Position numbers and translations under genes: made by a program | The notes under the pieces: model-generated | Database searches by the model: none | The model's input: only the letters and a program-made list of their open reading frames with translations | Told to the model about the DNA's origin: nothing | Assembly (NCBI GenBank): GCA_023920165.1 | Contig: CP089275.1 | Location: forward strand, 3,968,001-4,032,000 | From: Curvularia clavata | Lineage: Eukaryota | Direction of reading: 5' to 3' | Length of the DNA stretch: 64,000 bases | Shown: piece by piece, positions 3,070 to 57,956 of the stretch | Position numbering within the stretch: the first letter of the stretch is position 1 | How the letters are laid out: every line of letters begins with the position of its first letter

Positions 3070-3857
3070 TTTGAAAATTCTGGTTACTCTGATGTGCAGT
3101 GTCTTTCTCGTGTGCTGATAGGTATTAGAGTAAGATTTTTGCTGTGCTGAGTTTTAGCAATTGAGCACTAAAATCGTAAATTGGTTGTCAATATACCCTC
3201 TCGAAACCTCTATTCCGCTGATTTGCAATCAACGCCTCGAAAATACAAAATGACTCTACAAGCGGAATTAGCAGTGTAGGTGATAAGGGCGCAGTGCATC
3301 CAAGGGCAGAAAACGCCAATATTAGCCTAGCCTCACCAAAGGGCGTCCGCCAAGAATACTGCCACACTTTTAGCGTGACGGAGGTCAGTACCTACAATTT
3401 TTAGAAACACGTTCCTCACACGATATCTGCGTTGCAGAGTCAATCTTGCAAACACGGTGATAGGACCGAGGGGTTCTATGATTAGCTTCTCACATGTAAG
3501 CGAGCTGAGCAGGGGTCCCACTACTGGCATGCCTCGAATGTAACCGTGGCCGACAAAACCGTTGCTCTCAGCCGCATCAATCACACCCTGCTATGTACCT
3601 GCACATGCAGTTCCACCGTTTGAACCATCTGTTTGCAGCTTAGAGAACTGTATAATCGCCGAAGCAAAGAGCCTCATGGCTTGAGGCTGAGCCGTTACCG
3701 CTCTTCGATTATCCAGCAACGCACCTCACGACATTAACAACTTCTTTGCAGCTGATTCCAAACACCGTGCCCAACGCAGCTGGGCATTGGCATTTTCCAT
3801 TTTCTTGCTCTCATCACCGAAGAGCAGGCAGGGTACTGGCGCCTCGTCACCGCCAAA

Positions 3858-5902
3858 ATGGGTTCCCTCAGGATGTTGTTTCTAGCGGTGCATGCCTCCA
3901 ACGGCATAATAAGGGCTTTATTCCTGCCAGCATGCTATCTCACGCTCTTCAGTCCTTTTGTACTTGTCTTCGCGTGGTACTTTGGCTTCCTACAAAGATT
4001 CGAAAATTTCATACCCGAAGACTTTTCCTGGTTCGATCTCTTGCCACAATTCGCGCTTTCAGCAGTCCTATTCTTGTTGCCTACAAGATTCTTATCAGCC
4101 TCGAGTGCTACAAATAAGAGCAAAGATGGGAAGAGACGGATACAATCGCTGCCCTACTGGATCCCGGGACTCAGAAACTTTACGAGCATCGCGTTCAGTG
4201 GTGAGGAGTGGTTAGGCGGTGTCAGGTTAGTTTAAGAAATATTATCCTAGAGCATCAGTTGACCATTTTCAGAGAATCTTCGACAGTAAATGTGGTTGCG
4301 TACAAGGCAGCAGGAACTAAACACAATGTGCTGCTTGCAGAGTCCCTGCTCAATCAGACATACAAAAACTGGCAGAACTTGGAGACACCAGACAATAATC
4401 TACGCCCCATCCTTCGAAATGCATTCAAGCTTCCATCAGCAATGGAAAGCCACTATCTCGAACTATTACCGGAAATCAGTCGAGTTGTGGAAACGGAACT
4501 GTATGGAGGACCAAGCAAGGAGGACCTTATCAAAACATCGCTCAAACACTTATCCGAATCTTTTCCCGACCTCGTCACTTTTAACTCATCGATTGTCGAC
4601 CAGATGCAATGGGAACGCGTCTCAAACATGGAACTTACCGACGGCACATCGGAAGTCGAGTGCGATCTGTTTACGCTCATCAATGAATTCTGCTGCAACG
4701 CCATCCTGCCGCCAATTGTTGGAGTCCAGTTTTCCGAATCATATCAGTTACTCCCTACAGACCTGGCTTCTCTCAATGAACGTTTCTGGGCGCTCGCTCT
4801 CGGGCTACCGCGGTTGTCACCTATCCAAGGCTTACCGGCGTCAGCTCTGGCCCGAAAACGATTGATAAGGAACTTTGAAAATCACTTCGCCGATTTGACA
4901 AACCCACCAGTAAAGAGAGTACCAGATGATGACGAAAGCGTGAGCGGCGAAGAAGATACGGATGCCGATACAGTTACGCCTCTCATGAAACTCAATCAAG
5001 TGTTCACCAAGCATGAGCTGCCAATGGAACTGAGAGCCTCAATTGCTCTTCATCTTGTGCATGATCTAGTCTCGGAAGTAGTGCCGCTTGTGTTTTGGAC
5101 GTTGCTGCATATTCACTCGTTATCGAGGGTGCAAGAGTCGGCCTCAGAAGATCTGCCACTTGAGAAGATTAAGAAAGAAACTAAAAACTGGGCTCGGGCA
5201 TTCCAACCACCATCAATTCACCCGTCATTCCCGGCGCCACCAGAGATACGCTTCGGGTCAGCAGCTGAGGCTCTCACTCCCACATCATTTCCTTACCTTC
5301 GCTCTTGTATCAATGAGGCACGACGTCTGTATAACTGCTCTATCAGTGCGTACAAGATCAAACAACCAATTACACTAAAGGAAGATGCCATACGAACAGG
5401 CGAGGAAGAGCAGTGGGAGCTGGAAGCAGGATCGTATATCGACATTGGCCTATCTCAGACCATGATTAATTCATCGCCCGTATCACACTCCGATCCACAA
5501 ACCTACAAGCCCGAACGCTTCCTAAATGCTCCGGTCCCATCCTCCATCATCACCCCGAACGATTCATCAGAATCATACAAGACTGCCCTTCTCATACCAT
5601 TGGTTGCAGGCCTCGTGCAGCTGTGGAATATTGCACCTGCGCCAAAGAAGAGCTTTTTCGATCAGATGCAGGAAGCAGGGAATCAAGCGTCCATGGGCGC
5701 AGCCGCGCTTGCCGGAGAGGAAAGAGCTACCGTAGGGGAAGCGGAACGAGCGAGAGGGGATGAAAAGAGAAAGGGAGCAAAATGGATGTTTCCGAAAGCT
5801 ATTGATGGAGCCAGCATCAAGGTTCCAAGAAGCGATGTCAGGGTAAGGATTCGTAGAAGGGAAGGTTTACCAGTAAGCAAGACTATTGGCCGCATTGGCT
5901 AG
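3858..5902 (+). CDS. Membrane-anchored cytochrome P450-fold protein (CYP7-like) lacking a recognisable heme-binding Cys motif; intron about 4226-4272
   Basis: N-terminal hydrophobic segments then LPYWIPGL. VPLVFWTLLHI (I-helix-like), CINEARRLY (ExxR) and YKPERFL (PERF) are present. No FxxGxxxCxG follows. Confidence 0.7.
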
Positions 5903-7491: not shown

Positions 7492-7563
7492 GCCTTCCTA
7501 GCTCAGTGGTAGAGCGCGTCACTAGTAATGACGAGGTCGTCAGTTCAATTCTGGCGGAAGGCA
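7492..7563 (+). tRNA. tRNA-Thr(AGT), intronless
   Basis: Acceptor stem GCCTTCC/GGAAGGC, D-arm GCTCAGTGGTAGAGC, anticodon arm CGTCA-CTAGTAA-TGACG, T-loop TTCAATT, followed by a T-run Pol III terminator. Confidence 0.97.
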
Positions 7564-54064: not shown

Positions 54065-54512
54065 GTTGAAAGTTTGACATGGTGAATTTCGGAAAGCTTC
54101 CGAACTTTTTGCTGCGCCAAGCCTAACGTCATGCCGTACTCTGCCGATCTTTGTCTTCGGTCTACAGCCTCTATGGCAATTACGGATTTTACAGGTTCTT
54201 GTGACGATAGCATAGTGACAAACTAACACGGAGATATAGCTTCTGACCAAAATTTGACTGCATTAAATGGAGAACCGACACCGTCTGGACAGAACAATAG
54301 ACAGCCAGCATCTGCATAACCGACCATCGGAAGTATCGTGTAAATCGTACTTGCGCAAGCGAGAATCCTTAGCAGTACTTATTCCTACGCTAACAATAGT
54401 TGGGTTGCGAGGACCACTGTTGCGTCGGTATCAAGACCACAACGCCGCTTCACAACCCATGACTATCTTGTTGCATCCATGTACTCCGCACAGTCTCCTC
54501 ACCTCAACCCTC

Positions 54513-54942
54513 CTATAGGCACTTCTTGTAATCGTCGTAGTATGGAAGACCACCTGTCCATGATTAGCAGTTTTTCCGTTTCACTTCAGATCCCAAACTT
54601 ACTCTCGCATCCTTCCTGCGTCCACCCTGCCCAGATCCAGCATCCCCAGCCTGGAACGTAGTCCCACTTCTTGTAGCCATTGGATCCGAATGCTTTACCG
54701 CGAGCAGTGCAGCGTACTCCAAAGCGGTCACCGCCTGTAACACCTCGCTTTCGAGTGCCACTGAAGGGCGTGGTGTCGCAGCCCTGAGGATCGTTTTTCA
54801 GGGCATCAGAGTTAAGCCAGCACCAGTTGTCAGCCCTAGGAAGGAGATCGGAAACAACTTCTGCGGTAGGGTTTCTGCTGCTGAGTGGTGATGCAGTTGC
54901 AACAAGGGGAAGGAGAAAAAGGATTGTGGAACTGGACTTCAT
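54513..54942 (-). CDS. Small secreted Cys-rich protein (candidate effector or antimicrobial); intron 54554-54602
   Basis: Signal peptide, pro-region ending LLPR, six Cys after splicing (last exon ..GLPYYDDYKKCL*), TATATAAA upstream near 55040. Confidence 0.85.
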
Positions 54943-55309
54943 GATGGGCGTTGATAGTCGTTATTGCAAAGAAGATGCGTGAGAATAATCTTTGAGCTGT
55001 AAAGGACGCTCTTCTTCATGTTTGAGGCTTCTCGATTTATATACACTACATGTCCTGGGAAGTGTAATTTTACAGTCAGTTCTAGCCTCGCAAGTGTGGT
55101 ATTGCTTCTGGGCATTGTTACCCAATGTTTCCTTAATGACATTCTAGTATAAGTTGTGTACAATTCCGAAATCAATTTTGTCGGTTTGATCGCATTGCGG
55201 ACTACACCAGGAAGGTGTCCGCAGCATAGGACTTCTAGCAGTTCAGCTGCCAAGCCGTGTATAGTGCTCCCCGCGCTTTAGCATCGCACTGGCCAACACG
55301 GCAGTCAGG

Positions 55310-56773
55310 CTCTCGGTGGACTAGAATAGCCGGACAACCATCGCCCCCACCAAAACAATGCAACCCCTGACATGCAACCACCCACCATCTCACCACCACG
55401 TACTCAAATATATTGATTTCATAAGCAAAAGTAGTGTATTTTACTGTCCGAATTCAAATATTACAATGCCAAGATGTAAAAGATTCATGACGCCGCCGCA
55501 GGAGCTAGTCAAAGATGCCGATGCACCACCCCAACTTGACACCCCTCGACGCGCCGCCATTATCGCGATACCCTATTATTGCGAGATACAGAAGCTACCA
55601 TGCAGTTACAGGCGTATTTCCAAAACACTTGGCATACCAAAATCTACGATATCCGACGTTGCCGCGTCCCGACGATGCCGCCGACTGCAGCACTCTGATG
55701 AGCTCGATCCACGCGGCATGCCGCCAAAATTCACCACGTCCGACGCCGACGCTGTTGCCACATATATCAAAAATGCTCCGTTTCATGAGAAGAGTGATTC
55801 TTGGCAAGATTTGGCTGAGAAAGCTGGTGTAGTGAAGGAGTATAAGCATGAGAAAGGTGCAGAAAACATTCAGTGGAGCTCTCATTACATACAACGACGA
55901 GTTACTCGACTCTCAGGCATCAAAACACACAAAGCTATCACTAAAGAACGTCATAGTCCGGCACAACTTGACTTACGTAAGGCATACGTCGACAGGTATC
56001 TTTCTGAGAAGCCGGATGCACGAGACTGGCGCAATGTGCTCTGGTGTGATGAGCTTCACTGGATGACTGGCCCTAGATATCAGAAAAATATCAAAAGAGA
56101 GGCAGGCCAGGCTGCCAAATATCACCCGGATAACATCCAATACGAAAAAAATCACAAGCCAAATCCTGAATTACAAGATCACTTTCACGTCTACTGTGTT
56201 ATCGGTTACGACTTTGCATGGGCTCTACCCTATTCTACTACGTCAGAAAATGGTAAAATGGATAGTAAAACATATACGGAGTACGTCCTGCCTGAGTTGC
56301 AGAAGTACTTACTTAGAGTGGGCGGTGAATATATTCTGTGGCAGGATCGCGATTCGTCTCACACCAGTAAGAAAACTCTCCGCTGGATGGAACTCCATGG
56401 CATGGACTATATCCTCTCACCACCCAAATCACCCGATCTCAGTGTCATGGAGACCTGGGTTTCACCACTCAAGCGCCAATTTTGGCAGCAAAGCTGTGCT
56501 ACGAGGGTTCAGGGGCAGCAGCGTTTTCGTCGGATTTGGCGTGCACTTGAGAAGCTCAAAGTCAACAAAACTATTGACAACTACCCACTACGACTCCAAC
56601 AAGTTCGGGATATATATCAGTATAGAGCCTCGCGCTTCTGATAATTTTTTTTGCATGTTTTGAAATGTAATTTTGGCTGATTTTGGCTGTATTTTAACGT
56701 GTTGTTGCATTGTGACGCGTGTGCGCGACTTTGGTGGGGCGGGGGTTGTCCGGCTATTCTAGTCCACCGAGAG
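55310..56773 (+). mobile_element. Full-length Tc1-like (DD34E) DNA transposon, 1464 bp, 30-bp perfect TIRs, flanked by TCAGG direct repeats
   Basis: TIR CTCTCGGTGGACTAGAATAGCCGGACAACC at 55310-55339 and its reverse complement at 56744-56773. TCAGG at 55305-55309 and 56774-56778. Confidence 0.93.
55466..56641 (+). CDS. DD34E transposase (IS630/Tc1/mariner superfamily), uninterrupted
   Basis: HTH-like SYRRISKTLGIPKSTISD, WRNVLWCDE, WQDRDSSH and SPDLSVME. 34 residues between the second D and E. Confidence 0.92.
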   Translation: MPRCKRFMTPPQELVKDADAPPQLDTPRRAAIIAIPYYCEIQKLPCSYRRISKTLGIPKSTISDVAASRRCRRLQHSDELDPRGMPPKFTTSDADAVATYIKNAPFHEKSDSWQDLAEKAGVVKEYKHEKGAENIQWSSHYIQRRVTRLSGIKTHKAITKERHSPAQLDLRKAYVDRYLSEKPDARDWRNVLWCDELHWMTGPRYQKNIKREAGQAAKYHPDNIQYEKNHKPNPELQDHFHVYCVIGYDFAWALPYSTTSENGKMDSKTYTEYVLPELQKYLLRVGGEYILWQDRDSSHTSKKTLRWMELHGMDYILSPPKSPDLSVMETWVSPLKRQFWQQSCATRVQGQQRFRRIWRALEKLKVNKTIDNYPLRLQQVRDIYQYRASRF

Positions 56774-56948
56774 TCAGGTACCTGTCACTAGCATTTCAGG
56801 GTACATGATTAGGTCCCAAATAAAGAATCAAATTTTTTAATTACGTTTGCCGAAGGTATTATGCATGCCAGCAGATACACTGACCAAAACAATTCGAACA
56901 TTATTTCGCTCAAAAACTTCACAGCTCATTCGTTTCCGATACCACAAC

Positions 56949-57956
56949 TCAGTCTTCTCTGATGTGCACAACGATCTTTCCCTTTGCCCTTCCGGTCTTT
57001 AGTTTCTCATAGGCCTTTGGTACATCGCCAAACTCCCATGTTGAGTCGATGACTGCACGCAGTTTCCCTTCAACCATCCATGCGGCGAGTTGTTCGTATA
57101 CCGCATTGCTCGGTTTCGGATCCACGAAAATATATTGTCTCTTCCCAAAGCTAAGTAAGCTTGCGATATTGTTGGTGAGAAGTTGAAAGATTCCGCTTGG
57201 GCTTATGCCTAGGCCCACCTGGATAAATTTCCCCTCAGGCCGTAGAAAGGCATTCGACACTCGGTAAAGATTGGCTGGAGTACCGACGTTATCGAGCACA
57301 AGATCGAACATCACGCCCCTGTCCTTCAACTGATCGACAATTGGAGCTGCTGTGTAGTCCAGTACCGTGTCTGCGCCCAAGCTCTTGACTAGCTCGATGT
57401 TCGCTGTGGAGCAAGAAGCGGTAACTTCGTAGCCAAGAATCTTTGCTATTTGAATTGCAGCGACACCGGTTCCTCCAGAGCCACCGTTGATGAAAACCTT
57501 GTTTCCGGGTTTCGCGTAAGGAGCGAGGCCAGCGTAGACCGTCATGCCTACGAGAGCGATGGCCACCATATCGTCTTTGTTCAAGCTGTCTGGCACTTTG
57601 GCGAGCAAGTTACGAGAGACTGGCAAGTATTCTGCGAGAGCTCCGTATTTAGCACCTGGGCCGATGGAGCCAAACACAATGTCGCCTTCTTGAAAATTAG
57701 ATACTTTGCTGCCGGTTTTGGCGACTCGACCATATATTTCAAGGCCGGGAGTCACCGAAGGGAAAACCAGACGTGTGATGAGACCGAGCTCGAGGATCTT
57801 GTAGTCGATTGCGTTGAGGCCTGTTGCGTAGTTTTCGACAAGCACCTCATCGTCTTTAATGGGCGGTATGGGAAGACCCGATGGCGGGATGTGAAGATTC
57901 TTCTCCATAGGGCCAGAGGACACCTGGAATTGCCATGCGCGCATTGTATCCGCCAT
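56949..57956 (-). CDS. MDR-superfamily NAD(P)H oxidoreductase (RTN4IP1/quinone reductase-like)
   Basis: GLNAIDYK, YGALAEY, VFINGGSGGTG, LGADTVLDY, GRAKGKIVV. Confidence 0.88.
   Translation of the reverse strand: MADTMRAWQFQVSSGPMEKNLHIPPSGLPIPPIKDDEVLVENYATGLNAIDYKILELGLITRLVFPSVTPGLEIYGRVAKTGSKVSNFQEGDIVFGSIGPGAKYGALAEYLPVSRNLLAKVPDSLNKDDMVAIALVGMTVYAGLAPYAKPGNKVFINGGSGGTGVAAIQIAKILGYEVTASCSTANIELVKSLGADTVLDYTAAPIVDQLKDRGVMFDLVLDNVGTPANLYRVSNAFLRPEGKFIQVGLGISPSGIFQLLTNNIASLLSFGKRQYIFVDPKPSNAVYEQLAAWMVEGKLRAVIDSTWEFGDVPKAYEKLKTGRAKGKIVVHIRED

Follow-up and report, generated by a model that had tools for sequence, protein, structure and literature searches.

Results

Structure of the element and its surroundings

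We analysed a 64,000-nucleotide stretch of the Curvularia clavata genome (assembly GCA_023920165.1, contig CP089275.1, positions 3,968,001 to 4,032,000 of the forward strand), hereafter called the window, whose first letter is position 1. The subject of this work is a transposon near the right-hand end of the window, which a first-pass annotation made from the letters alone had described as a Tc1-type DD34E element flanked by a 5-bp target-site duplication (TSD), TCAGG, instead of TA. The locus reads ...GGCAG TCAGG, followed by the element itself, CTCTCGGTGG...CCACCGAGAG, followed by TCAGG TACC..., and the following features were delimited.

55305..55309, no strand: left copy of the TSD, TCAGG, 5 bp; present as a single copy in the empty alleles of three public sequencing runs (X3, X4 and X8)
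55310..56773, plus strand: the whole, very likely autonomous element, 1464 bp, with CTCTCGG...CCGAGAG ends; contigs of other copies start or diverge at 55309/55310 and 56773
55310..55347, plus strand: left terminal inverted repeat (TIR), 38 nt, outer 30 nt perfect; from an inverted-pair search and a gapped alignment of the ends
55355..55364, plus strand: left subterminal motif, ACAATGCAAC; forms an inverted pair with 56704-56713
55466..56641, plus strand: transposase gene, 391 aa and stop codon; supported by the open reading frame (ORF), the starts of homologues, and domain and fold matches
56704..56713, plus strand: right subterminal motif, GTTGCATTGT, the inverted copy of the left motif; from the inverted pair
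56736..56773, minus strand: right TIR; from the inverted-pair search
56774..56778, no strand: right copy of the TSD, TCAGG, 5 bp; from the sequence and the empty allele

The two terminal arms (55310-55347 and 56736-56773) are 95% complementary over 38 nt and agree perfectly in their outer 30 nt, a 30-mer that had no match in any of 100 dinucleotide-preserving shuffles of the window. Inward of the left arm, a weaker inverted similarity extends, in the gapped alignment of both ends, to about 55364, and the 10-mers at 55355-55364 and 56704-56713 are 100% complementary. Consistent with the first-pass annotation, we re-observed the perfect 30-bp TIRs, the inverted 10-mers and the uninterrupted ORF, and TA adjoins neither end of the window copy. 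Because a 5-mer recurred at the same spacing at only 69 of 62,300 window positions (a rate of 0.0011), the TCAGG repeat is unlikely to have arisen by chance. Within the subterminal region, two direct copies of the motif ATGCAACC lie at an interval of 13 bases in 55358-55378 (the second at 55371-55378), and one inverted copy is found at 56704-56713. These repeated sites could be putative inner transposase-binding sites, by analogy with Tc1 elements of the inverted repeat/direct repeat (IR/DR) type.

The insertion site is intergenic. A zinc-type dehydrogenase gene on the minus strand, identified by its ADH_N and ADH_zinc_N domains, reads towards the element and ends about 175 bp short of it (stop codon at 56949); a small ORF to the left of the element gave no family match. 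No further copies or derived small elements were found in the window: a search with the 30-mer (up to 3 mismatches) recovered just the two ends, and a search with a 15-mer (up to 3 mismatches) added 2 weak matches, not above chance, and a loose pattern for the end motif matched nothing but noise. Far from the element, at about 7502-7540 on the plus strand, the stretch ...CTCAGTGGTAGAGCGCGTCACTAG..., noticed by chance, resembles part of a tRNA gene.

The transposase is Tc1-like in sequence and predicted fold

The single long ORF of the element (55466-56641) encodes 391 aa without an internal stop, and homologues start at the same MP(K/R) as position 55466. An upstream in-frame ATG at 55358 falls in the end region and is without homologue support. 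The catalytic triad comprises D195, D294 and E329, with spacings of 98 and 34 residues, and therefore is of the DD34E type. A phmmer search against the sequences of the PDB returned one chain, the catalytic domain of the Sleeping Beauty (SB) transposase SB100X (5cr4_A, E-value 8.2e-11), and the motifs WCDE, QDRDSSH and SPDLSVME of the window protein align on the catalytic D, D and E of SB100X, respectively.

Profile searches pointed to the same group with weaker scores. The Pfam family DDE_3 (PF13358) matched the window protein at an E-value of 2.1e-6 with 28.1 bits, just below its curated cut-off of 28.6. In alignment A1, comprising 13 proteins including the window's own obtained by a word-indexed protein search, DDE_3 matched 7 of the 13 members at E ≤ 0.01, and PF13358 was precomputed for P0001, P0002 and P0011. 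The Pfam family HTH_SB gave a weak match (E-value 5.5e-4, 20.1 bits against a cut-off of 43). The NCBIfam family IS630 (NF033545) was matched at an E-value of 1.2e-11 over model positions 13-295 of 299, with a score of 44.6 bits, far below the cut-off of 100, and it is the sole NCBIfam family that matches the window protein at E ≤ 0.1. Judged by its sequence, the window protein is thus best described as a relative, and not a member, of the bacterial IS630 equivalog.

We next consider the predicted fold. The AlphaFold2 model, built from a 33-row alignment, has a mean predicted local distance difference test score (pLDDT) of 82.8 and shows helices at residues 26-68 and 91-150. The top match of this model in a Foldseek search of the PDB was SB (5cr4_B, E-value 1.1e-10), followed by full-length Mos1 complexes (3hot_B, 3.6e-10; 5hoo_B, 1.0e-9; together with 4u7b and 3hos, the range is 3.6e-10 to 1.8e-8) and the SETMAR transposase domain (3f2k_A, E-value 4.2e-8, target-normalised TM score 0.79), with retroviral integrases ranked far below these three. 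The alignments to full-length Mos1 span 365-393 columns with a root-mean-square deviation of around 11. The N-terminal helical part (about residues 26-150) is a putative helix-turn-helix region that would bind the 38-nt ends. The model and its Foldseek matches indicate an RNase-H-like catalytic fold like that of SB and Mos1; TIRs surround a single transposase gene; the third catalytic residue is E, not the D of the DDxD triad of pogo/Fot1; and no CENP-B-type Pfam family was among the matches of the window protein. Overall, because sequence and predicted fold both match SB, Mos1 and SETMAR, we assign the protein to the IS630-Tc1-mariner group as a Tc1-like member, in agreement with the first-pass annotation.

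Empty alleles reveal a 5-bp target-site duplication

Public sequencing runs were searched with window positions 54900-57200, which gave 23 runs from 19 studies, and the contigs of four runs (X2, X3, X4 and X8) were aligned to 54300-57800. Contigs of an empty allele, in which 55302 is joined to 56772, were present in X3 (one contig of 367 nt), X4 (one contig of 26,798 nt, with flank differences at 1 of 1003 letters on the left and 1 of 1029 on the right) and X8 (two contigs, of 1123 nt and 598 nt). The empty allele reads ...GGC AGTCAGG TACC..., and the unoccupied target is ...GGCAGTCAGGTACC... Because the empty alleles skip 1469 bases (1464 + 5) and keep one TCAGG, the insertion in the window duplicated 5 bp of its target, as claimed in the first-pass annotation, which had named a single TCAGG at an empty site as the outcome to expect.

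The same annotation had cautioned that, with two end bases reckoned to the target, both flanks read AGTCAGG (7 bp), and indeed the placement of the joint is ambiguous by 7 letters. The junctions of other copies settle this point. On the left, contigs pass into unrelated DNA left of 55309 (X2) and left of 55306 (X8), and several contigs of X3 and X4 begin exactly at 55310; on the right, contigs in X4 and X8 enter unrelated DNA directly after 56773. Because other copies keep the AG at 56772-56773 before unrelated DNA, and because the relatives described below end in GAGAG, this AG belongs to the element, which is therefore a symmetric CTCTC...GAGAG unit with a duplication of 5 bp.

In the contigs of X2 no joint of 55302 to 56772 was found. 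The X2 flank contigs enter the element by 28 and 10 letters and then stop (the rule for bridging being 31 letters), X2 shares its organism label with X1, the best-matching run, and the site is likely occupied by the element in X2. Two further arrangements were seen at the locus. A contig of X3 joins 55309 to 56948, immediately short of the dehydrogenase stop codon, and skips 1638 bases; this may be another structural allele at the site. In X8, a diverged empty-site allele joins 55275 to 56768 with 26 replaced letters, and its target, ...CGAGAGTCAGG..., happens to resemble the right end of the element plus the duplicated bases.

Other copies, mutational load and recent transposition

In X2, 237 contigs aligned to the locus, 156 of them at an identity of at least 99%, and the summed contig depth was 273-741 over the element versus 45-52 on the flanks, a quantity that is not a copy number. 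The listed kinds of difference resembled the action of repeat-induced point mutation (RIP) in X2, where all 38 were C>T (17) or G>A (21); in X4, 47 of 55 were C>T or G>A. The window copy, which the first-pass annotation had judged to lack obvious RIP damage, has a TpA/ApT index of 0.75 versus 0.70 for the window and a (CpA+TpG)/(ApC+GpT) index of 1.22 versus 1.25. Thus, some other copies look RIP-mutated, and the window copy is free of RIP-like damage. Copies in X2, X3 and X8 also diverge from the window copy at about 56640-56700, between the stop codon and the right end, with loose contig ends at 56664, 56680 and 56695; the family has variants with differing 3' non-coding parts.

The intact ORF and perfect outer ends, the many near-identical copies (in X2), and the empty site in X4 with flanks that are ∼99.9% identical together indicate recent transposition of the element. 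From this polymorphism and intactness, the window copy is probably still able to move, which is in line with the potential activity suggested in the first-pass annotation.

Relatives, their junctions and their phylogeny

Four named relatives of the window protein come from Bipolaris maydis, B. zeicola, Setomelanomma holmii and Clathrospora elynae; B. maydis, S. holmii and C. elynae belong to the Pleosporales, and B. zeicola shares the genus Bipolaris. A profile of the 13 proteins matched 3079 representatives at E ≤ 1e-3, 411 at E ≤ 1e-10 and 80 at E ≤ 1e-30. A profile-guided scan of metagenome contigs gave seven loci, of which three hold complete elements and one a left end. The remaining three (L005, L006 and L007) are truncated or rearranged fragments without recognisable ends and were excluded from the junction counts. 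Scans for exact matches to 20 nt of the ends gave none in the metagenome, genome and viral contig collections, and scans of genome contigs and viral contigs with the A1 protein profile found no relative. The four loci with ends are as follows.

L001, left end at 276: ends as L002; CCAAG on the left; one flank only
L002, 2458-3837, 1380 bp: ends CTCTAGGTTGAC...; CCGGC on the left, ACCCC on the right; no repeat
L003, 2863-4270, 1408 bp: ends CTCTCAGGTGGAG...; CCCGG on both flanks; exact 5-bp repeat
L004, 1461-2868, 98.4% identical to L003: ends as L003; CATGG on the left, AGCAG on the right; no repeat

The transposase of L003 is 32% identical in protein sequence to that of the window, and its ends are likewise CTCTC...GAGAG. 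The transposase frames are broken in L003, which is without an open N-terminal part (ORF 3310-4188), and in L004, which has an early stop (1452-2531), so that neither is an intact autonomous copy. Altogether, 13 junctions could be compared: seven left (window, X2, X8 and L001-L004) and six right (window, X4, X8 and L002-L004). The first-pass annotation had made its proposal depend on the flanks of other copies being free of TA and bearing a consistent 5-bp duplication. The former part stood, since TA lay next to the element end at none of the 13 junctions; the latter stood only in part, as, of the four complete copies for which both flanks are available, two (window and L003) are bordered by an exact 5-bp repeat. 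Because the chance of such a repeat is 0.0011 per copy, these two are not accidental. Four of the seven left 5-mers (TCAGG, CCCGG, CCAGG and CATGG) fit the palindrome CCNGG with at most one mismatch; the right flanks, which are unpaired, depart from it, and a CCNGG target preference is no more than a possibility.

A quick maximum-likelihood tree of 34 rows placed the window protein, P0014 (the L002 protein) and the L003 ORF in a clade of 15 rows with a Shimodaira-Hasegawa-like approximate likelihood ratio test (SH-aLRT) value of 99. The other 18 rows form the sister group, which includes the UniRef 'Tc1-like' proteins of Drechslerella and Trichodelitschia. On the window side of the corresponding alignment (A2), all 15 rows are DD34E and have T or S after the catalytic E; in the sister group, the spacing is 34 in 3 of 18 rows and 36-46 in the rest, and most read EN. 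We infer, with less certainty than for the window copy, a whole fungal clade with CTCTC...GAGAG ends and a DD34E transposase that shares the 5-bp duplication trait.

Weighing of the explanations

Taken together, the results make it very likely that the window carries an autonomous cut-and-paste transposon of the IS630-Tc1-mariner group, with a DD34E transposase, that inserted recently between genes and duplicated the 5 bp TCAGG. Several observations weigh against this explanation. The DDE_3 and IS630 scores of the protein fall short of their cut-offs, and the present mobility of the window copy is argued from polymorphism and intactness. L002 and L004, half of the four complete copies, lack any flanking repeat of at least 2 bp, and, given the identity of L004 to L003, age alone does not explain the missing repeat of L004. 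Moreover, G is the base next to CTCTC at 6 of the 7 left junctions (GG at 4 of 7), and A is the first base outside the element at 4 of the 6 right junctions, two of which, from different families, open with ACCCC. This bias to G on the left and A on the right may reflect a preferred target, an additional end base or noise in a small sample.

The left-hand bias is also what would be seen if the left end were asymmetric and extended by G or GG ahead of CTCTC, in which case the true duplication would be Zator-like, at 4 bp (TCAG) or 3 bp (TCA). The window locus alone cannot place the cut, as the 1469-base difference fits 7 letters on either side, and L003 is compatible with extra bases as well (CCCG or CCC). 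However, the extra base is inconstant, with C in L002 and AG instead of GG in X2 and L001; the complementary C appears on the right side at just 1 of 6 junctions; and in each of the three families CTCTC/GAGAG marks the exact limit of the inverted repeat. IS630 alone among the bacterial transposase families matches the window protein at E ≤ 0.1. We consider this explanation unlikely. Neither do we favour the idea that the family has no fixed duplication, such that the 5-bp repeats of the window and L003 are occasional or aberrant and the usual product is none or TA. It draws on the repeat-less copies L002 and L004, but both of these come from short-read metagenome contigs, in which mis-joined flanks of a multi-copy repeat may, we infer, account for the missing repeats. 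Exact 5-bp repeats in two sub-families, each with the low chance given above, the clean empty allele at the window locus, and the complete lack of TA at the junctions all make it quite improbable.

A duplication of 7 bp (AGTCAGG), with an element of 1462 bp, would account for the letters shared on both sides of the joint, but it is contradicted by the copies in X4 and X8, which keep the AG at 56772-56773 with unrelated DNA beginning only after 56773, and by the ends of all relatives, GAGAG being the mirror of CTCTC; we regard it as very improbable and rejected it. The last candidate was that the element belongs to another superfamily with normal 5-bp duplications (Transib or some hAT elements) and merely resembles Tc1. 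Nothing but the length of 5 bp agrees with such an identity, which the SB100X match by phmmer and the Foldseek ranking contradict: sequence and fold point to SB, Mos1 and SETMAR, the profile matches are to DDE_3 and IS630, and no RAG1-like or hAT chain was among the matches listed by Foldseek. This candidate, which we likewise rejected, is hardly credible.

Beyond the window copy, a broader proposal is that the clade, found in Pleosporales and soil-type metagenomes, reset its stagger from 2 to 5 bp and left TA for GC-rich, loosely CCNGG-like sites, the window copy being a living autonomous member. We see about equal grounds for accepting and for doubting this proposal.

Proposed mechanism

Following the established chemistry of DDE cut-and-paste transposases, the DD34E transposase would bind the 38-nt ends through its N-terminal helical part and excise the element. 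The 3' ends would then be joined to the two target strands at phosphates staggered by 5 bp, versus 2 bp (TA) in classical Tc1/mariner transposition, and gap repair would duplicate the five target bases. The stretch between the first two catalytic residues is 98 residues long in the window protein versus about 90 in SB (alignment-based), and it is in this interval that the clamp loop of Tc1/mariner enzymes lies. Speculatively, and by analogy with those enzymes, the longer stretch might change how far apart the two active sites lie.

Discussion

In the structures of Mos1 and SB complexes, transposition is explained through the TA dinucleotide. That a DD34E relative duplicated five bases without TA shows that stagger and target choice can be changed without altering the triad or its spacing, and a distant cousin (L003) appears to share this trait. 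If the trait is clade-wide and the element active, the family would be a tractable system for asking which parts of the transposase set the distance between the two strand-transfer events; the clade and SB/Tc1 would then form a natural pair for learning how the best-studied eukaryotic transposase fold fixes its target choice and stagger. The family could also provide a Tc1-type gene-transfer vector that is not tied to TA and has a different insertion profile. In the annotation of fungal genomes, the CTCTC...GAGAG family would be missed or wrongly delimited by pipelines that require Tc1/mariner elements to be flanked by TA.

The first-pass annotation had raised the possibility of an undescribed lineage, and the literature is consistent with this. 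In a search that covered papers, with Repbase and Dfam outside it, none was found that pairs a Tc1/mariner element with a 5-bp duplication, and a Tc1-like lineage with a 5-bp non-TA duplication appears to be new. TpA is called the signature duplication of the group (PMC4344528), and two other papers also give TA as its signature (PMC10045372, PMC7386202). Similarly, a study of Cochliobolus heterostrophus, whose genome holds a relative of the window protein, reports TA for the Tc1-Mariner elements of that fungus (PMC4112212).

Among known systems, Transib, with its RAG1-like transposase, agrees with the window element in nothing but the 5-bp length of its duplication. Zator/ISAzo13 has a non-TA duplication in common with it. 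Zator/ISAzo13 is treated as a superfamily within the IS630-Tc1-mariner group (PMC7386202), and IS630, mariner, Tc1 and pogo are said generally to give 2-bp TA duplications and Zator 3 bp (PMC10045372). The window element differs from Zator in its duplication of 5 bp with symmetric ends, and it is set apart from Zator/ISAzo13, as these are described, by IS630 as its sole NCBIfam match and SB as its nearest solved structure. The Fot and Fot-like elements of fungi, which belong to pogo, are likewise fungal members of IS630-Tc1-mariner that depart from plain TA, with reported duplications of TAA and TAAA beside the classical TA (PMC7386202). However, these duplications are 3-4 bp long and contain TA, whereas that of the window element is 5 bp and does not; also, pogo transposases are DDxD, longer and equipped with another DNA-binding domain, whereas the window protein is DD34E.

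Closer to Tc1 itself, Tc4 and Tc5 of Caenorhabditis elegans (TNA) and TBE1 of Oxytricha (ANT) are Tc1/mariner relatives with 3-bp duplications. They illustrate that the stagger can change within the group, although at 3 bp, with an A/T-rich core, and in animal or ciliate hosts. In fungi, Tc1-like elements are exemplified by impala. The DD34E/Tc1 family, with Tc1 and SB, shares its triad with the window protein, and SB is the best match of that protein in both sequence and predicted fold. The differences lie elsewhere: Tc1 and SB have ends of the CAGT type and insert at TA, which they duplicate, and in both an N follows the catalytic E, whereas the window element has CTCTC ends, all 15 members of its clade have T or S after the catalytic E, and the duplications of the window copy (TCAGG) and L003 (CCCGG) are 5 bp long and without TA.

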